Positions 10,266 to 41,613 of a stretch of DNA of 64,000 nucleotides are shown piece after piece. The notes beneath the pieces were generated by a model. That model was not told the origin of the DNA. It was given only the letters and a program-made list of their open reading frames with translations, and ran no database searches. The position numbers and the translations under genes were made by a program. This DNA comes from Clostridia bacterium. GTDB taxonomy: Bacteria; Bacillota; Clostridia; Christensenellales; UBA1242. Location of the stretch: NCBI GenBank assembly GCA_900768545.1, contig CAAGDD010000004.1:83493-147492 (forward strand). The letters run 5' to 3'. How positions within the stretch are numbered: position 1 is the stretch's first letter; the number at the start of each line of letters is the position of its first letter.

Positions 10266-10291
10266 TTTTGTTTGTCACAAAAGGAAGAAAA

Positions 10292-11254
10292 ATGAGCAAA
10301 AAATGGATAATTTCATTATCAATAATTTTTTCAATTTTGGCAGTTGTGCTTATTCTTTTTTGGACACTTTTTGGTCTTTCATCAGTGACGGTCGAATTTG
10401 ATTCAACACTTCAAAATTTGACTGTTTCAGAGCAAGAAATTTTGGACGCTGGCGAGTTTAAATATCATTCTTGTGTGCTTTTTGACGGGAAGAAAAAATA
10501 TATTCAAAAAATCGAAGACAAGGCTTTTGAAAATCCAAATTTTGCATATTTAAGAGTTGTAAATGTCGAAACAAGATTTCCAAACAAATATATCGTGCAT
10601 GTGACTGAAAGAGAACAACTTTTTGCTATCGAAAACAACGGACAAGTTTTGATTTGTGACCGCGATTTGAGAGTCTTGAAAATTGAAGATAGTTTTGTGT
10701 CAGTTCAATCAAATCCTATTTTGGTGCAAGGTGCAAAAATCTTGACTCAAGATGTCAAAGTGGGCGACTTTTTGGAAATTGAACAACAAAGTTTGAAAAA
10801 AGTTTATAGCGCATTTTTGAAAAGTAATCGTGACTTTTCGCAAATTGTTGGAAAGTTTAAGTCGTTCAAACTGGGAACTTGCGTGGCTGAAATCACGGGC
10901 AAAGAGTATGTTTCGCTCACCATGACGACTTTTGGTGACAAAACTTTTGTGATAAACAACATTGATTTTGCGTTAAATCAAAAGATTTCTCTTGCTTTGT
11001 CAGTCGAAGCAAGTGTTTATGCTCAAACTTTTGACGAAGACGGAAATGTCATAAACAAAAGTGGAGATAACATCTTTGTGATTGCAAATGAGCGTGGCGA
11101 ATATGTGCCTTTTGAAGAAGGAATGGACGAGTCGAAAAAAGAAAAACTCGGGCTTGAAAATATGAAGACAATTTTAGTGGACAATTTGGTGATAACTGAT
11201 CACACTCCACGAACTGAAAAAGATATTTATTATTGCTTTTTGAAAACGACTTGA
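10292..11254 (+). CDS. FtsQ/DivIB-like cell-division protein (single TM plus POTRA-like domain)
   Basis: SD AAGGAAG plus ATG at 10292. It has an N-terminal TM helix and the POTRA-type segment VTVEF...RFPNKYIVHVTEREQLFAI. It sits at the dcw-cluster position. Confidence 0.65.
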   Translation: MSKKWIISLSIIFSILAVVLILFWTLFGLSSVTVEFDSTLQNLTVSEQEILDAGEFKYHSCVLFDGKKKYIQKIEDKAFENPNFAYLRVVNVETRFPNKYIVHVTEREQLFAIENNGQVLICDRDLRVLKIEDSFVSVQSNPILVQGAKILTQDVKVGDFLEIEQQSLKKVYSAFLKSNRDFSQIVGKFKSFKLGTCVAEITGKEYVSLTMTTFGDKTFVINNIDFALNQKISLALSVEASVYAQTFDEDGNVINKSGDNIFVIANERGEYVPFEEGMDESKKEKLGLENMKTILVDNLVITDHTPRTEKDIYYCFLKTT

Positions 11255-11255
11255 C

Positions 11256-11382
11256 GGGGCAGACGAAGAGCCCCGAAGGGGCGGAAAAGCGCATGAGAAA
11301 ATGAAACCTGTGCGGCTTCATTTTTTTTGCGCTTTTCACAACGCGCCGTGGCTGGCCGCCACGGTCGCGGCTTCGTTCGCCC
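11256..11382. repeat. GC-rich four-helix palindromic intergenic element, copy A1
   Basis: Closing stem GGGGCAGACGAAG/CTTCGTTCGCCC. Internal hairpins at 11270-11282, 11284-11292/11329-11337 (with CTTCAT+T8 inside) and 11346-11364. Confidence 0.75.
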
Positions 11383-11395
11383 ACATCACATCGCA

Positions 11396-11463
11396 GGGGC
11401 GAAAGTTTGCGTTGAAACGCCTTTCAACGCAAGTTTTGCCGCGCGATCTTAACCCTTCGCACC
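11396..11463. repeat. Truncated element, copy A2 (homologous to the 5' half of 15181-15309)
   Basis: GGGGCGAAAGTTTGCGTTGAAA..TTTCAACGCAAGTTTTGCCGCG aligns with 15181-15233. A degenerate GC-rich tail continues to about 11520. Confidence 0.6.
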
Positions 11464-11741
11464 TTTCTGCCACATTTTCTCGTGCGCCAAAACAGGCGAC
11501 GCACCCCGCGCGCTGCCCCAAATTTTCACCCCAAAAAATCATCAAATCACGCACAATTTGTCAAAATTGCAAAAAAAATAACAAAATTTTGTCAAAAAAA
11601 GGCTGAAAAATGTCGAAAAATATTTGCTAAAAAAAATATATTAAATTATAATAAATAATATAGTTGTTGCTTTCACGGGTGGCGTGAATTTAGCAACTTC
11701 AGCTATCAAGCACAGCGATAAAATGTGTCACAGGGAGGCAA

Positions 11742-14036
11742 ATGAAGAATAAAATATTTTACACATTTTCTGTAATATTTTTTGCGATAACTGCACTTTG
11801 TGAAGGACTTTTTCTATGCCAAATTTTCAATAGGGATAGTCTTAGCCCGCATGGCTTATTTTCGATCGCGACCGAGTATTTTAATTTTGCTTTAACTGAC
11901 AATGGCCGTCATGGTATCGAGCTTCCAGACTTGACGTCTGTTGTGCCAGAGTATGAAAAAGTGGTTGAGCTCACTTTCAATCCCTATCATGCATTTTTGG
12001 GTGATGATGTTTATGTTATGACACTTGATGAGTTTTATGTAATGTGGCCTGACAAGGTTGACGAGGTTGATAATTCAAACAATATAAATATTTATATTAG
12101 TTGGAGTGACACTCCAATTGGAAGAGTGATGTGCATTGTTCCTAACGGCGAAAATATTGTAAATTTATCTTCATTTACAGAAAAAAAACGATCAATTCAA
12201 TATTATTTCACAGTGTCAGAAGGTGCGTCAAATATTTTTTCCGGCTTTGAAAGGTTGAGAGTTTTGGATATGTCAGGTGTTTTTGTTAAAAACTGCTCAA
12301 ATGCAGACGGAATGCTTGGCAATTTGTCAGGTTTGAAGTTGGGGAAGATGCCGATTCCACTTGATAATAGCATAACAGACAATATGATAGATGGAAATGA
12401 GGTGTCAAGCGAAGAATTTATGCCTTTTGGCGAAATTGGCTGTCCTTACCAAACTCAGGCGTATTCGGATTGTGAACTTATGGAGTTTCCTTTTGACAGA
12501 CAGCATCATGAAGATGGTCATGATGGATCGTGTTATACTGATGGCTGTGACGAAAACTTTTGGAATGATTTTTGGAACAGTCTTGGCGTCGATCCAATAA
12601 GTATAACACAGGTTTATTTCAATAGTGAAGAAGCTATTTCAAATTTTAACATGTCAAATGATACCAGCATTACAGCAGAATCTGTCGGTGTTGGTCCTTT
12701 TACTTCGGCTTATGGAGAAATTCAAGTTTATGTTTCAAGTGGCAATTGGAATATTTATGACGCTTATGGCGAAACATTTTATAGTTTATATTCAAGCGAA
12801 CTTGATGATTATGATGGTTCTGAGCCTGTAGTCATAAATTTTGTAGGAAATTTCAATATTGGTCACCGAATAAACTTTTCGCCATTAAAAAATTTGTGTT
12901 ATGTTGATATGTCTGGCGCTTGGGCTTATATGATGCGTGGTGCACTTGCTGCGTCAGAGTCTATCGGAACTATTCCTAGGGTGAAAAGCGGAACTGGTTT
13001 TATGGGATATGTAATGCCAATATATGTTCCTTATGAAGATCCAGTTGATAATGAAGATGTTTACAATGAAGGTCACTTTTTTGGATATGGTGCTTCTTTT
13101 GAAGGACGAAACAACTCGTTGTCAGGGACTGGCTGCAATAGTGGATACAATTTGTATAGAAATGAGTCACAATATATCGTTCATATCACTTTGGACAAAA
13201 ATGGTGGTTCAAACGGGTCGGACGGCGTTTGGTTTTTGCAAAATACTTCGACATATTATGACAATGCAGATATGAGTTATTCAAATAAGGTAACACAAAT
13301 TTCTGTTCCAACAAAAACAAATTATATTTTCGCGGGATATCAATATAACGGAACTGTGTATAATGGAAAATTGTTTATCGACAGCAATGGAAAATTTGCA
13401 AGTAATTTTGGGTCGTTTTTTGTTGAAGATGCGACGCTGACAGCACTTTGGGTTGAGCCTCAAGTGGTTTCAGTTTCGTTGAATCCAAACGGCGGAAGCG
13501 GAGTAGATTCGGCGGTTTATTACTACTATTATGTAAACAAATATTACAAAGATTCGACTATGGCAAACAGATTTGATTACAACAAAATCACTTGCCCTAC
13601 TCAATCTGGATATAAATTTTTGGGTTATTACACAGAATCCACTGGCGGAACACAATATATTTCAAGCACTGGAAATATTTCAGATGACTTGTGCTACAAA
13701 ATCAACAGTTCTACGACATTATTTGCTCACTGGCGAGATAGTTCTGGTGGCGGTGGAGGCGGAACAGTCACCCCGACCACTTACACAGTTTCAGTGACAA
13801 TCAAATCAAGCACAAGCAGCAATCCAAACACTTTTGAAAGTTCGACTTCGGGAATGAATAGTGTGACTGCAAACTATTATGCAAGTTCAACAAGTCAATC
13901 GTCTTCAAGCATTTCAAACGCAAGTTCGAGTTTCACTTCGGTGAAGAACAAAGATTTTAAACTTACAGCAGCGGCAAAAAATGGATATCTATTTTTTGGA
14001 TTTACGACAAGCAATTCTGCGCCAAGCCCAACTTAA
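11742..14036 (+). CDS. Large secreted/surface protein with Listeria-Bacteroides-type (InlB B-repeat-like) repeats; N-terminal segment of an interrupted reading frame
   Basis: SD GGGAGG and an N-terminal hydrophobic segment. Two clear repeats of the pattern NGG...GY.F.GY...........TL.A.W, then a G6 linker and a Ser/Thr-rich region. It ends at a TAA inside a third repeat. Confidence 0.7.
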   Translation: MKNKIFYTFSVIFFAITALCEGLFLCQIFNRDSLSPHGLFSIATEYFNFALTDNGRHGIELPDLTSVVPEYEKVVELTFNPYHAFLGDDVYVMTLDEFYVMWPDKVDEVDNSNNINIYISWSDTPIGRVMCIVPNGENIVNLSSFTEKKRSIQYYFTVSEGASNIFSGFERLRVLDMSGVFVKNCSNADGMLGNLSGLKLGKMPIPLDNSITDNMIDGNEVSSEEFMPFGEIGCPYQTQAYSDCELMEFPFDRQHHEDGHDGSCYTDGCDENFWNDFWNSLGVDPISITQVYFNSEEAISNFNMSNDTSITAESVGVGPFTSAYGEIQVYVSSGNWNIYDAYGETFYSLYSSELDDYDGSEPVVINFVGNFNIGHRINFSPLKNLCYVDMSGAWAYMMRGALAASESIGTIPRVKSGTGFMGYVMPIYVPYEDPVDNEDVYNEGHFFGYGASFEGRNNSLSGTGCNSGYNLYRNESQYIVHITLDKNGGSNGSDGVWFLQNTSTYYDNADMSYSNKVTQISVPTKTNYIFAGYQYNGTVYNGKLFIDSNGKFASNFGSFFVEDATLTALWVEPQVVSVSLNPNGGSGVDSAVYYYYYVNKYYKDSTMANRFDYNKITCPTQSGYKFLGYYTESTGGTQYISSTGNISDDLCYKINSSTTLFAHWRDSSGGGGGGTVTPTTYTVSVTIKSSTSSNPNTFESSTSGMNSVTANYYASSTSQSSSSISNASSSFTSVKNKDFKLTAAAKNGYLFFGFTTSNSAPSPT

Positions 14037-14039
14037 ACC

Positions 14040-14987
14040 GTGAGCGAGTCGCAAAGTTGGACGATCTCGTCAAACACTTCGATATATGTTTGGTTTAAGG
14101 CTGTTTCGGGGAACAAACTCAAATATGACTCGACCGACAAATATTGGTATTTCGAAGACGGAAAGACGCTTCAAAGTTATGTCGGCGATAAACTGAACAG
14201 CGAGATAAATTCGAGCATAGATAAGACGACTGCTTCGACAGGAGAACTTACAATTTTCACCGTTGGCGGAACTGGTCACAATGTAAATTTATATAGATTT
14301 AAAGGCGAAATTTATGGTGCAGTCACCACTTTGCAAACAATGAATTTGAAATTGAGTGGAACTGACTATGCGTTTACAAAGGGGGAAACTTATTGGTTTA
14401 AATATGAGCCTATCCGTTGGCGTGTGAGTGATTATGGCATTCCAAGCACAAGTTATCCAACGGGTTGGGATAAGTATGGTTGCTATAATACTAACTTCAC
14501 AGCCGTTTCAGACAAGATTGTTTACGCTTCTCAATTAAACACAGAAGAATTCACTCTTGGTGAAAATGGCTGCTATACAAACACAATGGTTAGCGGTTAT
14601 AAAGACGGCGCTTATTCAATGGATGTGAGAATTAAAGAAAACTCTTTCAATTATTTGGCAGAAACAGATGCAAACATGACTCAATTTACTTCGCAAGACA
14701 AGTCGGAAGACAGAAGAACAGTGGTTTATCGCTTTAGACTTCGCGTGGCGAATGTTGAAGAACTTGAGAACAACTTCTCTGACTTGCGTTCGACCGCAAC
14801 TGATTATGTAGCGTTTTTGCTTGGCATAAATACTGACCAATATTGCAATTATTTCACGAGAGATGTAGGAACAAAATATTACAATATGACCGGCATTGGT
14901 GTTGATGGCAGGTTGCACGACTATTATTCAAATCAGTTTATGGGCATGCGCCTTGCAATGACATTTACTCAAGGCTCGAGATATTAA
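14040..14987 (+). CDS. Continuation of the same surface-protein frame, downstream of a single in-frame TAA (14034-14036); probably not an independent gene
   Basis: Same frame as 11742-14036. There is no SD before the GTG and no signal peptide. The first residues (WTISSNTSIYVWF) complete the repeat begun upstream (NGYLFFGF). Confidence 0.45.
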   Translation: MSESQSWTISSNTSIYVWFKAVSGNKLKYDSTDKYWYFEDGKTLQSYVGDKLNSEINSSIDKTTASTGELTIFTVGGTGHNVNLYRFKGEIYGAVTTLQTMNLKLSGTDYAFTKGETYWFKYEPIRWRVSDYGIPSTSYPTGWDKYGCYNTNFTAVSDKIVYASQLNTEEFTLGENGCYTNTMVSGYKDGAYSMDVRIKENSFNYLAETDANMTQFTSQDKSEDRRTVVYRFRLRVANVEELENNFSDLRSTATDYVAFLLGINTDQYCNYFTRDVGTKYYNMTGIGVDGRLHDYYSNQFMGMRLAMTFTQGSRY

Positions 14988-14989
14988 AA

Positions 14990-15143
14990 GGGCGACGGGA
15001 AAAGCAAATCAAAAGATTTGCTTTTTTTTGTTGCAAAAGGCGGTGAGTGTGATGTGAAAATGAGCGGTGCGATGCGGCGGGTGGAGAGTTTGAAATGCCT
15101 TTGACGCCTTTTGCAACTCTGCCGCGTGCGGCAGCCGTCGCCC
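14990..15143. repeat. GC-rich palindromic element, copy B1 (variant architecture)
   Basis: Closing stem GGGCGACGG/CCGTCGCCC. It contains the terminator hairpin AGCAAATC-aaaa-GATTTGCT+T8, the 13-bp stem GTTGCAAAAGGCG/CGCCTTTTGCAAC, and the hairpin CTGCCGC..GCGGCAG. Confidence 0.75.
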
Positions 15144-15180
15144 GTGTTTGTTGAGAAAAAGGTGTTTGAATGTTGAAACT

Positions 15181-15309
15181 GGGGCGAAAGTTGGCGTTGA
15201 AAAGCGTGTGCAATTCAACGCTGTTTTGCCGCGAAAAATGTGTTAAAAAACTTTGACTTTTTCTCGCTCGCGGCAAAACGCAGCCCTGCGGGCTGCAAAC
15301 CTTCGCCCC
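15181..15309. repeat. GC-rich four-helix palindromic element, copy B2
   Basis: Closing stem GGGGCGAA(A)G/CTTCGCCCC. Internal stems GCGTTGAA/TTCAACGC, TTTTGCCGCGA/TCGCGGCAAAA and GCAGCCC-tgc-GGGCTGC. Confidence 0.75.
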
Positions 15310-17827: not shown

Positions 17828-17940
17828 ATTTGTCTTTTGACACATATTGAAATGATATGTTGATGTTTGAAAGTGAAGTCGAAATTTGGAAAGTAATGTT
17901 GAAATTTTAAAAAACTTTGAGATGAAGTTTTGTTTTGCAA

Positions 17941-18096
17941 GGGCGTCGGAAAAGCAAATCAAAAGATTTGCTTTTTTTTGTTGCAAAAGGGCGGGCGATG
18001 AGCAGAATTGACGGACAATGGCGGGCGGTGTGAAAGGGCTGATTTTTTTACACCTTTTGCAAATCTGGCGCACATTCTGTGCGGCAGCCGGCGCCC
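17941..18096. repeat. GC-rich palindromic element, copy C (paralogue of 14990-15143)
   Basis: Closing stem GGGCGTCGG/CCGGCGCCC. A 43-nt block is identical to 14998-15040. Also contains stems TTGCAAAAGG/CCTTTTGCAA and CTGGCGCACA/TGTGCGGCAG. Confidence 0.75.
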
Positions 18097-18245
18097 CGTT
18101 TCCATTGAAAACACTTTGTTTGAAAATCACCACAACAAAACTACACTTTATAAAAAACTACACAAAAGAAACATACATTTAAAACCGCCACACCACAAAA
18201 AACACATATAAAAAGCACTTTATTTTTCATAACCACCACACTGCT

Positions 18246-18278
18246 ACAAAAAAAACAGCATATCGATTTGATATGCTG
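18246..18278 (-). terminator. Intrinsic terminator of serS
   Basis: On the minus strand: CAGCATATC-aaatc-GATATGCTG followed by T8. Confidence 0.7.
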
Positions 18279-22244: not shown

Positions 22245-22802
22245 ATGGAAAACCAAGATTATAAATTTGTAAATGACGAAACTCATCAAAAAGGCAAAAA
22301 ACTTTTTAAAACTTTGGCTTTTATCTTTTTGTCAGTGGCTGTTGTCGCTATTATTTGCGCGATTCCACTTATCGTCAAAGGTGTTCAACTTGGAAATGTC
22401 ACAAACGAAAACCCTAATTATTTCGAATTGAATAAAAAAGGTGCAAATCTTTTGATGGGTGGCTTCGTTTTGATGGGAATGGGAGGACTTTTCTTTGGCG
22501 GATTGTCACTTATGATGTTTATTATGGCTCATCAACGCGAACTCGTCGCTTATCAAGCAAGTTCAACAATCCCTGTTGTTGGCGAAGGTGTTTCTCAAAT
22601 GGCACAACCTGTTGGAGAGGTTGTTGAAAAAGCAAAAATTGCAAAGAAAAGAGTTTGTGAAAAGTGTGGTGCAGAAAACTCTGCAAACGCAAAATTCTGC
22701 AAAGGTTGCGGCGAAGCTCTTGTGAAAACTTGTCCAAAATGCGGAAAAGTTGTTGAAAAAGACTCAAGTTTTTGTGCTGAATGTGGCAGCAAAATTGATT
22801 AA
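22245..22802 (+). CDS. Membrane protein with a C-terminal double zinc-ribbon
   Basis: Two TM segments, then CEKCG..x..CKGCG..x..CPKCG..x..CAECG. SD TAGGAG. Confidence 0.6.
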   Translation: MENQDYKFVNDETHQKGKKLFKTLAFIFLSVAVVAIICAIPLIVKGVQLGNVTNENPNYFELNKKGANLLMGGFVLMGMGGLFFGGLSLMMFIMAHQRELVAYQASSTIPVVGEGVSQMAQPVGEVVEKAKIAKKRVCEKCGAENSANAKFCKGCGEALVKTCPKCGKVVEKDSSFCAECGSKID

Positions 22803-22812
22803 CAAAATATGG

Positions 22813-22844
22813 AAAAAGCAAATCGAAGTGATTTGCTTTTTTTT
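22813..22844 (+). terminator. Intrinsic terminator
   Basis: AGCAAATC-gaagt-GATTTGCT followed by T8, starting 11 nt after the stop codon. Confidence 0.7.
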
Positions 22845-22895
22845 GCGTGAATTTTAAAAATATTGTGGACTTTTATGCATATTTTAAAATGTGGT

Positions 22896-23031
22896 GGGCG
22901 GGCGAAAGCGCCCCGAAGGGGCGAGAAAAGCGAGAAAAAAGTGAGGCGACCGTGCTTCACTTTTTTTTGTCCGCTTTTCTCACGCACAAGCGAGCGCAAA
23001 AAACGCTCGCTCGCGCGTCTTTCGCCCGCCC
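22896..23031. repeat. GC-rich four-helix palindromic element, copy D (archetype)
   Basis: Perfect 13-bp terminal inverted repeat GGGCGGGCGAAAG/CTTTCGCCCGCCC. Internal hairpins at 22909-22923, 22924-22932/22972-22980 (with CTTCAC+T8 inside) and 22990-23010. Confidence 0.8.
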
Positions 23032-23122
23032 TTTGACAAAATTTGAGCATAAAAGTTTTGATTTGTCATTTTTTTCTTATATCGATATGATTGAAATAAA
23101 ATAAAATGATTTTGAGGCAAAA

Positions 23123-30219: not shown

Positions 30220-30983
30220 TTTTTTATTATTTGATGCTTGCATGCATTGCGGGGTATTTGATTGGAAATATCAACTTTGCACGCATATATTCAAAAGCGT
30301 TTAGCAAAAAAGACATCACAACAATCGGGAGCAAAAATCCTGGCACAATGAATATGCTTCGAACAAATGGCTTTGGCGAAGCAATGCTCACCCTTGTTTG
30401 TGAAGCAATCAAGTGTGGCTTGCCAGCTCTTTGTGCTTACTTTTTGTTTGAACATTTCTTTGCTGGAGCTGGAAATGTTTCTTACTTTTTGACTGCTCTT
30501 GGGGCGGTCGTTGGACACTGCTTTCCTGTTTTTTACAAATTTAAAGGCGGAAAAGGTGTGGCTTGCACATTTGGAATGTTTTTGTTTCATCCCCAACTTT
30601 GGTGGGTTGGAATAATCGTTTTTGTTTGCTGCTTTTTGTTGTTCTTCTTTATCAAATATCCATTTTTGATTTCATTTTCATTTATTTTCACAATGACGAT
30701 TTATTCGACTGTGATTTTTTGGCAACAACAAGTCCCATATATCATTGTTGTGATTTATTTGATGTGGCTCAATGTCGCACTTTTGATCTTTATGCACAGA
30801 AGCAACATTTCAAGATTGGTTCGCGGAAAAGAAAACAAAGTAAACTTTTTTGAGAAAGTGTTTAAACGAAAAAAGAAAGACAGTGTTGAAAAGACACAAG
30901 ATGTCGAGCAGAAAAATGAAGGGGAGAGCGAAACCTTTGCCGAAGGCAAAAAAAACAGCGACGAAAAAAATGAAGTCAAGTGA
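30216..30983 (+). CDS. plsY: Glycerol-3-phosphate acyltransferase PlsY, with a ~55-aa charged C-terminal extension
   Basis: Motifs GSKNPGTMNMLR and FKGGKGVA. It overlaps the der stop. Its stop codon lies inside the hairpin of repeat E. Confidence 0.9.
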   Translation: MIFYYLMLACIAGYLIGNINFARIYSKAFSKKDITTIGSKNPGTMNMLRTNGFGEAMLTLVCEAIKCGLPALCAYFLFEHFFAGAGNVSYFLTALGAVVGHCFPVFYKFKGGKGVACTFGMFLFHPQLWWVGIIVFVCCFLLFFFIKYPFLISFSFIFTMTIYSTVIFWQQQVPYIIVVIYLMWLNVALLIFMHRSNISRLVRGKENKVNFFEKVFKRKKKDSVEKTQDVEQKNEGESETFAEGKKNSDEKNEVK

Positions 30984-31055
30984 CTTCATTTTTTTTGTGT
31001 GCCGCGGTTTTGAGCGCGCGGGGCGGCGCTCGCCCGCACGCGTTTCGCTCGCGAG
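30970..31055. repeat. Partial GC-rich element, copy E (central hairpin plus right arm only)
   Basis: ATGAAGTCA-ag-TGACTTCAT followed by T8 and GC-rich hairpins. It shares the CTTCAT-T8-G motif with copies A1, D and F. Confidence 0.6.
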
Positions 31056-32600: not shown

Positions 32601-32602
32601 AC

Positions 32603-32724
32603 GTGGGGCAAAACCTTTGCAAAGCAAAGAAAAATTTGCAAAAAAAATGAGGCCGACCGCTTCATTTTTTTTGTTGCAAATTTTTTGCCCGCCGCGCCGC
32701 TCGCGGGCGGGCGTTTTGCCCCAC
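32603..32724. repeat. GC-rich four-helix palindromic element, copy F
   Basis: Perfect 12-bp closing stem GTGGGGCAAAAC/GTTTTGCCCCAC. Internal stems CTTTGC-aaa-GCAAAG, AAAAATTTGCAA/TTGCAAATTTTT (with CTTCAT+T8 inside) and GCCCGCCGCG/CGCGGGCGGGC. Confidence 0.8.
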
Positions 32725-32872
32725 ACTCGACCAAAAAAATCGACACAATATAATCAACTGTCGAAAATCAAAAATAAAACGCAAAAAAACTTAAAATTTT
32801 TTAAAAAGATAATCAAAAATTGGTTGACTTGAAAAGGGAAAGTTTAATATAATTTGTCTAGGAGGGATAAAT

Positions 32873-34418: not shown

Positions 34419-35195
34419 TTATGAATTTGTTTCAACGGCTTTGTGCTTTTTGTCGTAAAGTTTTTTAAAGCCCCAATAGATAAGATAAATTATTGCGACC
34501 ATTCCAAACACCGCACCGATTGTGCAAATTGGCATCAACCATGTTGGGATAAATGGGAAGGTGCTTCCTGTCAAGAAAAACCAATCATAATGATGATTTT
34601 CTGGAATGCCAGCGTAGAGAACATTTCCAATCATTGCCCAAACAGCGATAAACAAAAGTGCAATATAATTTTGCCAAATATTTTTCCATTGCAATTTTGT
34701 GTGACCGGTCGTCAATGCCAAAACTCCCCAGCCAAACAAAAGTCCGTGGAAGGTGAATGTTTCAACAACTTTATAACTAAAAGGAGAAACTCCGCCAAGG
34801 GCAGAGCCCGGATATGTCATATACATAAGAGAACTTACGACTGCAAGCGACGCAGAGATTTCGCGAAGCCAAGTCTTTTTTGAAAAGTTTGCAAAAACGA
34901 TAACAATGCCCATAACGGTGCAAATATGAAATGGCAATTTGTCGATATCGATTTGTCCGTTTGAACGATAAAATGGCATCATAAAAAAGTTTAAGATATA
35001 AACGCAAACTGGAGCAATTGCAAAAAAGTTTAATGCTTTGCGCTTTGTGTTCTCACTTTTTCCTTTCAAAAGAAATGCAACAAGTGCTGTTGTTCCAAAT
35101 ATCAAAAGCAAATATCCAATGTGCCAGCCCGAAAACAATGTGATTTCAGAATGCGACCACTTGGCGTTTAAAAGTTTATATAAAAATTCAAACAT
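34419..35195 (-). CDS. Polytopic membrane protein, possibly YwaF/TIGR02206-like (family assignment from memory, uncertain)
   Basis: About 7 TM segments and the motif KLPFHICTV. It is a paralogue of the next gene. SD GAGGA. Confidence 0.5.
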   Translation of the reverse strand: MFEFLYKLLNAKWSHSEITLFSGWHIGYLLLIFGTTALVAFLLKGKSENTKRKALNFFAIAPVCVYILNFFMMPFYRSNGQIDIDKLPFHICTVMGIVIVFANFSKKTWLREISASLAVVSSLMYMTYPGSALGGVSPFSYKVVETFTFHGLLFGWGVLALTTGHTKLQWKNIWQNYIALLFIAVWAMIGNVLYAGIPENHHYDWFFLTGSTFPFIPTWLMPICTIGAVFGMVAIIYLIYWGFKKLYDKKHKAVETNS

Positions 35196-35289: not shown

Positions 35290-35418
35290 GGGCGGGCGAA
35301 GGCACGCAAGGCTACGCCGCGTGCCAAAAACGGGGCACAAAAAAATAAAGCCTTTCGACTTTATTTTTTTCGCGCCGCCGTTTTTCTTGCTCCGCTCGCG
35401 GAGCAAACTTCGCCCGCC
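35290..35418. repeat. GC-rich four-helix palindromic element, copy G
   Basis: Closing stem GGGCGGGCGAAG/CTTCGCCCGCC. Internal stems GGCACGC/GCGTGCC, AAAAACGG/CCGTTTTT (with ATAAAG-8 nt-CTTTAT flanked by A/T runs inside) and TTGCTCCG-ctcg-CGGAGCAA. Confidence 0.8.
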
Positions 35419-35431
35419 GCCGTCTGCACAC

Positions 35432-36205
35432 CTAAACTTGTTCGCTTTGCCCTGTTTTTTTCTTTCTTGCTGGCAGTTTGCAAAGCCAAACGACCAAATA
35501 AAACAAAGCAACATAGACGATGATCGCCAAAACACCAAACACTTGATAAGGAACTCCCCAAAAATCAAAATCGACAGGGTTGTTTCGAAGATACATATAA
35601 TCAGATCCGGGAAAGATAACAAAGTCAAGCAGTGCACCCCAACAAAACATAACTGTGAAGCAAAGATAAGTTTTCCAAATGTTTTTAAATTCAAGTTTTG
35701 CAAAGCCATAAACAATAACCAAAATCGAACACATAAATCCAATCATGTGTGACACTGTGCTGTAAATGCAAGTGAACGACATATATGTGCGATTGAGACC
35801 GACCGCTGGGAAGAGCAAAAAGGAGATAGTTGCCAAAAATCCGCCGACAGCGCTAAAATCGAGCAATGCTTTGCTTTTTGAAAAGATTGCAATAATGAAA
35901 ATCCAAACCATAACTGAACAAATGTGCATAGGAAGCAAAATCTTCAAAATATTTTGCCACGAATAATCTGTTTCAATGCACAAATTGACCACTCTCGAAA
36001 CTATTTCAAACATAAGCAGAATGCTTACCAAAGTTATAACAATAATTCGTCTTATTTTTTCAGATTTTTTATAAAACAACAAACTAAACAAAATTGTTAA
36101 GACTGCAACAGTTACCAAAACGATTATGTGACGTGTGCCATAAAGATATTCACTTTTTGGAAGCGATGGGTTGTTTTCGTTTGTCCACCAATCATGAAAA
36201 CTCAT
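35432..36205 (-). CDS. Polytopic membrane protein, paralogue of 34419-35195
   Basis: Similar length and topology, with the motif LLPMHICSV. SD AGGAGAAA. Confidence 0.5.
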   Translation of the reverse strand: MSFHDWWTNENNPSLPKSEYLYGTRHIIVLVTVAVLTILFSLLFYKKSEKIRRIIVITLVSILLMFEIVSRVVNLCIETDYSWQNILKILLPMHICSVMVWIFIIAIFSKSKALLDFSAVGGFLATISFLLFPAVGLNRTYMSFTCIYSTVSHMIGFMCSILVIVYGFAKLEFKNIWKTYLCFTVMFCWGALLDFVIFPGSDYMYLRNNPVDFDFWGVPYQVFGVLAIIVYVALFYLVVWLCKLPARKKKTGQSEQV

Positions 36206-36269: not shown

Positions 36270-36346
36270 TTGGTGTTCCAGAGAAGATTCGAACTTCCGA
36301 TCTTCAGTTTAGGAAACTGCTGCTCTATCCTGCTGAGCTACTGGAA
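36270..36346 (-). tRNA. tRNA-Arg (anticodon CCU), CCA encoded
   Basis: Hand-folded cloverleaf. Acceptor GTTCCAG/CTGGAAC, D-stem GCTC/GAGC, anticodon loop TTCCTAA, T-arm GGAAG-TTCGAAT-CTTCT, discriminator A plus CCA. Length 77 nt. Confidence 0.88.
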
Positions 36347-36509
36347 CATATATGAAATATTAGCACTAATTTCTTAAAATTGCAAACAAAAGCACTCTTT
36401 TGTGATTAATATGAAACAAAAAATAATAAAAACAAAAATATTTTGTCGAATTAATTGATTTTTTAAACAATTTCGCGTATAATTGTCATAACAATAAAAG
36501 GAGAATAAT

Positions 36510-41303: not shown

Positions 41304-41476
41304 ATTTTGACAAGTTTGCTTATTTTGTGGCAAACTTGTTTTTTTTGTCATAAAAAAGACTATGGAAAAAGAAAAGAAATCAAACATCAAAATTATTTGT
41401 ATCAAGGCTCCAAGATGGTCTGTGCCATTTTTGAAGTTGTTTTACAAAAAAGACAAAAATGTTTCAAAATAGCAAG

Positions 41477-41613
41477 CGGGCGGGCAAGACTTTGCCCCGT
41501 GCCGGGGCAAAGTGAAAATTTCGACACAAGGGTGCAGCCAAATGGTGTGCGCGGTTCTTTTTTTGTCGAAATTTTTTGCACGCACGGCGCACTCGCGCGT
41601 GCCTTGCCCGCCG
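41477..41613. repeat. GC-rich four-helix palindromic element, copy H
   Basis: Closing stem CGGGCGGGCAAG/CTTGCCCGCCG. Internal stems CTTTGCCCCG-tgc-CGGGGCAAAG, AAAATTTCGACA/TGTCGAAATTTT and GCACGC/GCGTGC. Confidence 0.8.

Follow-up and report, generated by a model that had tools for sequence, protein, structure and literature searches.

Repetitive extragenic palindromic (REP) sequences, BIMEs and REPINs, which are mobilised by RAYT and known from Enterobacteria and Pseudomonas, are extragenic palindromes with a G+C content above that of their surroundings, and they lie just downstream of genes. They occur in many lineage-specific copies and consist of inverted conserved units around a less conserved spacer. 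In addition, they can terminate or stabilise mRNA and bind proteins at the DNA level. Miniature inverted-repeat transposable elements (MITEs) of bacteria, among them Correia/NEMIS, RUP, BOX, ERIC and bcr1 of Bacillus, are non-coding intergenic sequences of 100-170 bp with terminal inverted repeats and stable folds. They are co-transcribed with their neighbours and present or absent between relatives. In most of these respects, both groups resemble a family of nested palindromes in a 64,000-nt stretch of contig CAAGDD010000004.1 from a Clostridia bacterium, here called the window. The archetype is the element at positions 22896-23031. The elements form a real family of homologous copies with a conserved structure. 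With moderate confidence, we regard them as paralogous copies of a lineage-specific, non-coding nested-palindrome DNA repeat of REP/BIME- or MITE-like type in an uncultured Christensenellales-like gut Clostridium.

Architecture and copies of the element family

The archetype is closed by a perfect 13-bp stem, GGGCGGGCGAAAG/CTTTCGCCCGCCC (22896-22908 / 23019-23031), which surrounds three hairpins (Table 1). Every stem quoted in a preliminary description of this DNA is present where it had been placed. The four-way junction is the minimum-energy fold of the archetype (-88.6 kcal/mol, z = -9.9), and none of 200 dinucleotide shuffles was as good. The five other full copies drawn by hand in the preliminary description have the same four-way architecture, with z-scores of -6.8 to -8.2 under RNA parameters, and DNA energy parameters yield the same folds with z-scores of -6.4 to -9.2. 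In the comparison with shuffled sequences, which had been suggested as a check, the archetype and all five of these sites lie far below their dinucleotide shuffles.

Two covariance models were used, R1 built from the archetype alone and R2 built from the R1 matches. The archetype scores 161.7 bits with R1 and 118.7 bits with R2. R1 found seven full-length copies at E < 0.004, spanning 11257-11382, 15182-15308, 22896-23031, 30922-31054, 32602-32725, 35290-35419 and 41478-41613; all five hand-drawn copies are among them. R2 recovered the same seven at E = 4e-9 to 6e-20, and everything else in the window scored E = 0.1 or worse. These weaker R2 matches were plain terminators, a differently ordered copy at 14986-15147 and the degenerate copy 11396-11532. 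A descriptor scan (GC-rich closing stem of at least 10/11 bp, span of 85-190 nt, three-branch loop, at least 0.42 kcal/mol per nt) listed 7 sites in the window vs. 0 in three dinucleotide-shuffled windows.

Every copy is closed by a terminal inverted stem of 9-13 bp. This means, terminal inverted repeats of the MITE type are present. The elements measure 120-155 nt. The closing-stem consensus is GGGCG(G)GCGAAAG/CTTTCGCCC; it is GC-rich and encloses three sub-palindromes, one of them AT-rich. The longest hairpin usually ends in an A-run, a stem and a T-run. Copies with the layout of the archetype are termed A-type. Two others, 14990 and 17941, share 43 identical nt and differ from A in branch order (z = -4 and -3; model E = 0.12). 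The preliminary description had treated them as a permuted variant of the archetype layout; the pair is real, but it constitutes a B subfamily of its own. Three branches lie inside the closing stem of 14990: a hairpin of terminator-like form, a long-range pairing TTGCAAAAGG/CCTTTTGCAA that bounds about 65 nt of G-rich loop, and a GC hairpin. A third B-type copy is located 9 kb upstream of the window (L218, 726-867), and the 10 kb downstream of the window contain no copies.

The window contains 8 A-type and 2 B-type copies, in agreement with the earlier estimate of about ten in 64 kb, and the census for this species amounts to 8 A-type and 3 B-type copies in about 84 kb. Two copies that had been described as truncated turned out to be of full size. 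The supposed fragment 30970-31055 belongs to the complete element 30926-31050. Likewise, 11396-11463 is part of a decayed full-size copy, 11396-11532, whose counterpart in strain L210 is near-perfect (-85 kcal/mol).

All copies reside in spacers between transcription units, in the interval that separates a stop codon or terminator from the next promoter. The right end of 22896 adjoins the conserved -35 box of the spoIIGA promoter, TTGACA. In about half of the copies, the start is no more than 5 nt away from a stop codon; for these, the earlier statement that the elements sit a few nt after stop codons is correct, for the others it is not. Nor are all of them strictly intergenic, as had been claimed, since 30926 reaches into the 3' end of plsY. 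The first 58 nt of this element code for the C-terminal 19 residues of PlsY, whose reading frame ends with a TGA (30981-30983) inside the terminator-like hairpin. In relatives, the PlsY tails are of low complexity, E/K-rich and variable in length. Because of this low complexity and variable length, the overlap is probably harmless.

Table 1. Elements of the window and parts of the archetype (positions refer to the window).
Feature	Position	Strand	Remarks
Archetype, A-type	22896-23031	+	136 nt; absent from the orthologous spacer of L005, L008 and L009
Helix 2 of archetype	22909-22923		CGCCCC-GAA-GGGGCG
Helix 3 of archetype	22924-22980		
Helix 4 of archetype	~22982-23018		
Terminator-like apex of archetype helix 3	22935-22968	no strand	A6, GTGAGGC, loop GACCGT, GCTTCAC, T8; predicted terminator form in both directions
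A-type	11256-11382	+	starts 1 nt past the stop codon of open reading frame 10268-11254; in all strains; 70% identical to archetype
Degenerate A-type, 15181 subtype	11396-11532	+	closing stem imperfect in this strain; R2 E = 0.31
B-type	14990-15143	+	starts 2 nt past a stop codon; closing stem GGGCGACGG/CCGTCGCCC
A-type	15181-15309	- (model preference, minus slightly better)	downstream of the terminator of rpmB (L28, minus strand)
B-type	17941-18096	+	between convergent fakA-like gene and serS; within a 424-bp block that one strain lacks
A-type	30926-31050	+	overlaps the last 19 codons of plsY; closing stem GAGCGAAAC/GTTTCGCTC
A-type	32603-32724	+	starts 2 nt past the spoIVA stop codon
A-type	35290-35418	ambiguous	between two minus-strand TMEM164-like paralogues; 88.2 bits plus, 86.2 bits minus
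A-type	41478-41613	+	starts 5 nt past a 36-codon open reading frame; apex less terminator-like

Structure is conserved to a much greater extent than sequence. A-type copies are 51-70% identical in pairwise comparison, and BLAST between copies yields matches of only 14-23 nt. The 23-nt match is located in helix 2 of 11256 and 22896; a helix 2 of the form GCCCC-GAA-GGGGC occurs in two copies. A terminator core ATGA[A/G]GC...GCTTCAT is homologous in four or five copies (apex of 11256, 30926, 32603 and 35290). These common parts, i.e. the closing-arm motif, helix 2 and the terminator core, argue at the sequence level for common descent and against convergence. A MAFFT alignment of six copies disregarded the helices and was replaced by a model-based alignment, in which 93% of the pair cells hold standard pairs. 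Both sides changed in 46 of 56 pairs and 0 of 500 column shuffles were as good, with slid partners about 50% paired, in an alignment that is fitted to the structure and in which 4 of 11 rows are reverse strands of the same loci. The earlier observation that structure is kept while sequence varies is borne out by these 46 pairs at 51-70% identity. At the strain level, substitutions in the elements are few and mostly single-sided. Elements of this kind would escape BLAST-based repeat finders.

Some features were noted beside individual copies. Spurious open reading frames of 71-101 aa run across the archetype (22847-23104 on the plus strand, 22799-23050 on the minus strand) and in L001 (2767-2982), and gene callers of public assemblies annotated these element-spanning frames as genes. 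The elements can, as seen here and in plsY, alter a protein C-terminus and trigger false gene calls. An unannotated open reading frame of 36 codons (MEKEKKSNIKIICIKAPRWSVPFLKLFYKKDKNVSK, 41353-41472) follows the terminator of the upstream oxidoreductase gene and ends 5 nt before 41478. The tandem TMEM164-like paralogues (34419-35195 and 35432-36205, minus strand) are separated by 35290, and a tRNA-Arg(CCT) gene is located at 36271-36347 on the minus strand. The flanks of the B-type copies are strand-asymmetric (window 17830-17940 and 18097-18250; L218 630-725 and 868-970). Their leader is C-poor and G/A-rich (GC skew +0.6 to +0.8), their tail G-poor, C/A-rich and rut-like (skew -0.5 to -0.66). 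Elements of L046, L015 and L119 have tails like those of the B-type, in contrast to the A-type copies in the window. A universal C-rich, G-poor rut-like tail was therefore rejected as a feature of the family, since it holds only for B-type copies and a few relatives.

Distribution among relatives and strains

The window derives from a spore-forming human-gut Clostridium and carries ftsA-ftsZ-spoIIGA-sigE-sigG, spoIVA and rpsJ-side translation genes. The nearest genomes in the species collection are uncultured metagenome-assembled genomes named 'Catabacter/Christensenella/Clostridiales', with SpoIVA identities of up to 87%. In the five closest relatives, a filter-free model search of syntenic DNA (90 kb) revealed no elements, only plain AT-rich terminators. 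About 950 kb from 53 relatives together with four low-GC metagenome loci yielded approximately 8 elements (two each in L015 and L046, one each in L024, L025, L119 and L136). Their arms, GGGCGAA(A)G/C(T)TTCGCCC, agree with those of the window, but interiors and branch orders differ.

In the absence of the element, the orthologous spacer is shorter. Downstream of spoIVA, it comprises 86-91 nt in element-free relatives vs. 272 nt here, and the closest relatives carry a plain terminator at this position. Upstream of spoIIGA, 130-140 nt in element-free relatives compare with 320 nt here. Elements downstream of spoIVA were found in three separate lineages, with a different interior in each. The elements L024 1941-2031 and L025 11540-11620, from two related species, are short (81-91 nt) and occupy the same site downstream of spoIVA, between orthologous flanks, in opposite orientation: they are 74% identical as reverse complements and 52% in the same orientation. 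This is consistent with an inversion between the closing arms. The family has expanded in this lineage, and copies can be gained or lost. The shorter element-free spacers, the scarcity in relatives and the different kinds downstream of spoIVA form a pattern suggesting that the expansion proceeded by insertion. The expansion in this lineage and the shorter, element-free spacers of relatives support the repeat or MITE option. The presence/absence comparison envisaged in the preliminary description thus gave a divided answer: elements are absent at orthologous sites of related species, but within the species they are fixed, and the indels look like deletions.

Within the species, 20 kb were compared between ten strains from different metagenomes. 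Over this distance all copies are fixed, and the archetype is found in 10 of 10 strains. Strain L058 lacks a 424-bp block holding the B-type copy 17941, with TTT[T/C]AAAC at both junctions. L207 and L216 lack 11396-11532; here, the deletion joins the 3' closing arms of two adjacent elements. In strain L210, a second locus carries a paralogue of 15181 that is 79% identical and has its helix-3 tip replaced. The proportion of variable columns is 10.6% in stems, 10.6% in the flanking spacer and 29% in loops (Fisher p = 7e-5). The loops, 22948-22953 included, show multi-base replacements between strains (GACCGT, GATCGC, TGTTTG, GAGTGC). This hypervariability suggests loop-directed or template-switch mutation.

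The surface-protein locus 11742-14987 (L207-L216), which has a weak Listeria-Bacteroides repeat match and elements on both sides, also varies between strains. It encodes 764 + 315 aa here and 1178, 1081, 1080 + 1026 or 1080 + 724 + 337 aa in other strains.

Beyond the relatives, viral contigs were scanned with the pattern GGGCGAAAG N95-125 CTTTCGCCC. All 18 loci found were rejected as unrelated, being phage DNA of high GC content or iterons of the GCGAAAGT type. Such iterons form dense arrays, with chance matches to the arm pattern and no relation to the family, in the viral contigs L070, L074, L076, L078 and L083. The scan of metagenome contigs gave at least 120 loci, nearly all of them chance matches in GC-rich environmental DNA; only L119 and L136 are family members among the matches listed. 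Plasmid and phage collections contained no match to the elements.

Level of the fold and spread of the copies

Several properties bear on the question whether DNA or RNA is the folded molecule. The family is strand-symmetric. In seven best-strand rows with 353 pair cells, 310 cells hold Watson-Crick pairs, 16 G-T, 8 A-C and 19 other mismatches. G-U accounts for about 4% of the pairs on each strand, and the summed fold energies of both strands are about equal. Many hairpins are palindromes with 3-nt spacers (C-GAA-G, GC-AAA-GC, GC-TTT-GC), a form expected of DNA palindromes and not of selected RNA loops, which favours the DNA level. The hairpin composed of A-run, stem and T8 is located inside the fold, so that a terminated RNA would be devoid of helix 4 and the 3' closing arm. 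The preliminary description had already argued that the central T-run ends transcripts before helix 4 is made; this argument stands and has been strengthened by the low G-U content, the strand symmetry and the opposite orientations. Taken together, near-pure Watson-Crick helices, equal stability of both strands, the internal terminator and orthologues in opposite orientation favour a fold at the DNA level.

A terminator-like stem-loop with T-run can be read at the helix-3 apex of 11256, 22896, 30926, 32603, 35290 and the B-type copies. The promoter/terminator consensus scan listed none of these apexes, since their T-run is paired with the A-run and a free tail is therefore missing. In form, the apex resembles the ordinary bidirectional intrinsic terminators of this genome. 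The data favour a DNA-level REP/MITE-like repeat that would also act as a predicted bidirectional terminator, and a module in the 3' untranslated region (3'-UTR) or a terminator module may be a secondary role.

According to this interpretation, copies would have originated when the element was duplicated or inserted between the stop codon of a gene and the promoter that follows. There they would be tolerated, and probably kept, as they would supply or reinforce termination in both directions. The fold would persist in the DNA itself, which would form a hairpin or cruciform when single-stranded or supercoiled, and arm-to-arm correction or template switching might renew the pairing while the sequence drifts. 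We infer maintenance of the pairing in DNA as well as mobilisation in trans; an RNA function would be unnecessary.

The copying agent is most likely a structure-recognising single-strand DNA transposase or recombinase encoded elsewhere. Mobilisation by RAYT or a TnpA of the IS200/IS605 type had been proposed and is not supported, as the called genes of the 84 kb comprise no transposase. A parent insertion sequence (IS) with the same terminal repeats was not present in the available DNA; searching for one by arm motifs at IS-like spacing was abandoned, since coding DNA contains this degenerate motif too often. Flanking repeats were seen at one unit only, the 424-bp block bordered by TTT[T/C]AAAC, and this block can equally be read as a deletion scar. 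A further reading, which we consider unlikely, makes the elements substrates of a structure-recognising DNA enzyme (an HUH/Y1 transposase, a junction resolvase or a tyrosine recombinase) that would read the folded four-way DNA junction plus the GGGCGAAAG arm instead of the linear sequence. During copying or repair in the folded state, one arm would serve as template for the other, and this would result in perfect Watson-Crick pairing at 51-70% identity and in inversion in place. If true, the elements would represent a new class of shape-defined mobile DNA in Bacillota.

A number of observations weigh against a DNA repeat mobilised in trans. The genes called in about 84 kb of this genome include no member of the transposase, HUH or integrase/recombinase families, no direct repeats (target-site duplications) border any of 10 copies, and a fresh insertion was seen in none of the ten strains. 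Both indels look like deletions between short direct repeats. Stems vary like flanks and thus give no direct indication that pairing is under selection at present. Terminator activity is predicted from the sequence only. The identity of copies (51-70%) is far below that of typical MITE families, and abundant double-sided change is the classic signature of a selected RNA structure. Furthermore, the orientation matches the upstream gene in 6 of 7 A-type copies, which an RNA role also predicts, and G-T exceeds A-C by 2:1 (16:8), an excess that speaks against the DNA level and is not significant.

Some of these points lead directly to a cis-acting RNA module of the 3'-UTR, a possibility that we regard as less probable, though it deserves attention. 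The fold would be selected in the transcript, helix 2 and the terminator hairpin would protect the 3' end of the mRNA, the junction formed upon read-through would block exonucleases or insulate operons, and the module would have spread by its usefulness. Strong covariation, orientation with the upstream gene in 6 of 7 copies, the start of about half of the copies 1-5 nt past a stop codon, the terminator-like apex and the 16:8 preponderance of G-T over A-C mismatches on the preferred strand are all in line with this view, and surveys of structured RNAs in the human microbiome hold many terminator-containing palindromic candidates (PMC8040213). However, a functional central terminator would prevent the closing stem and helix 4 from ever being co-transcribed, even though the closing stem is the best-conserved part of the element. 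Both strands fold equally well with rare G-U pairs, orthologous copies exist in both orientations, the 16:8 excess is not significant in an alignment fitted to structure, and stems are not more conserved than flanks within the species. A trans-acting or catalytic structured RNA, such as a four-way-junction ribozyme or a small RNA, is scarcely credible: four-way junctions with covariation are typical of functional RNAs, but here the helices are near-perfect with neither conserved internal loops nor conserved unpaired nucleotides, no promoter precedes the copies, a terminator sits in their middle, they are strand-symmetric, and no Rfam family matches.

Alternatively, the copies might lack a common ancestor and have grown in place, ordinary terminators having been extended outward by template-switch quasi-palindrome mutations. 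Such convergence, which we judge very unlikely, would account for an apex like the ordinary terminators of this genome, for hypervariable loops with multi-base replacements between strains and for hairpin tips swapped between close paralogues. It does not explain why copies and species have a closing-stem motif in common, or why several copies share helix-2 and terminator cores; moreover, the apex of 32603 has no relation to the terminator that follows spoIVA in relatives, and the elements 22896, L024 and L025 adjoin an intact separate terminator. The conserved end of plsY was dismissed as evidence of evolution in place, because the low-complexity, E/K-rich PlsY tails of relatives align by composition only. 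Highly improbable, finally, are recombination sites folded from single strands in the manner of integron attC or Xer/IMEX sites, which would mark exchangeable cassettes, e.g. the hypervariable surface-protein genes 11742-14987. Here, too, structure is conserved and sequence is not, many copies lie directly past stop codons, and the strain-variable surface-protein locus is bracketed by elements, with a further element between the genes in strains with two large genes. Long attC sites, like these elements, have branched tips. Nevertheless, RYYYAAC/GTTRRRY cores are missing from the closing stems of most copies, no integrase or recombinase is encoded in the 84 kb, and most copies flank housekeeping genes (spoIVA, plsY, spoIIGA, rpmB, serS). 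In the variable surface-protein gene, conservation of the 3' end continues as far as the element, so that the boundary of variation lies inside the gene; for this conserved 3' end, elements as general delimiters of surface-protein cassettes were rejected.

Should the repeat interpretation be right, REP/MITE-like palindromic repeats extend to abundant uncultured Clostridia of the human gut. In addition, the family would offer a natural case for asking if compensatory change in palindromes requires selection on RNA or if arm-to-arm correction at the DNA level may suffice. This bears on the practice of reading covariation as proof of a functional RNA.

Comparison with known systems

The preliminary description could not assign the elements to a named family, and the same holds after searches of Rfam and the literature. 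At gathering score, only the tRNA-Arg of the window matches an Rfam family, and with E-value thresholds the best match to the archetype (E = 0.043) is far below gathering scores. Literature searches found no published description of the elements.

Among mobile sites with a defined fold, integron attC sites share several traits with the elements: structure defines them, they follow stop codons directly, they work as single strands in folded form, and their long representatives are branched at the tip. Neither R/L core sites nor an integrase or a cassette array accompany the elements, which are flanked by core housekeeping genes. Closing stems mostly end in AAAG/CTTT; AAAC/GTTT is found only in 30926 and 32603. 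Mitochondrial GC clusters, double-hairpin elements and repetitive hairpin elements are likewise GC-rich, lineage-specific hairpin islands in AT-rich spacers; they differ by being organellar and shorter, by consisting of one or two hairpins and by lacking an embedded terminator (e.g. PMC2800124).

The nearest published category are the terminator-containing palindromic candidates of Fremin and Bhatt (2021; PMC8040213), which are intergenic 80-130 nt motifs of gut bacteria detected on both strands. The published examples set the elements apart from this category, as they come from Bacteroidetes and are mostly simple hairpins (PMC8040213).

A REP unit consists of one imperfect hairpin of 20-40 nt with a conserved GTAG-like head, whereas the elements are four-way junctions of 120-155 nt. 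A GTAG-like 5' tetranucleotide is lacking; conservation is instead found in GGGCG(G)GCGAAAG. The called genes of the 84 kb include no RAYT gene, and the host, a low-GC Clostridium, is unlike REP hosts. As in REPs and REPINs, there are many extragenic, lineage-expanded copies (11 in about 84 kb here, none in the 90 kb of syntenic DNA of the closest relatives). Copies of a MITE usually exceed 80% identity, possess target-site duplications and carry the repeats of a parent IS. In contrast, the elements are 51-70% identical with compensated stems, and neither duplications nor a parent IS were found. The family is an interspersed palindromic repeat that is unusual in its four-way architecture, its internal terminator and a pairing that outlasts the sequence.

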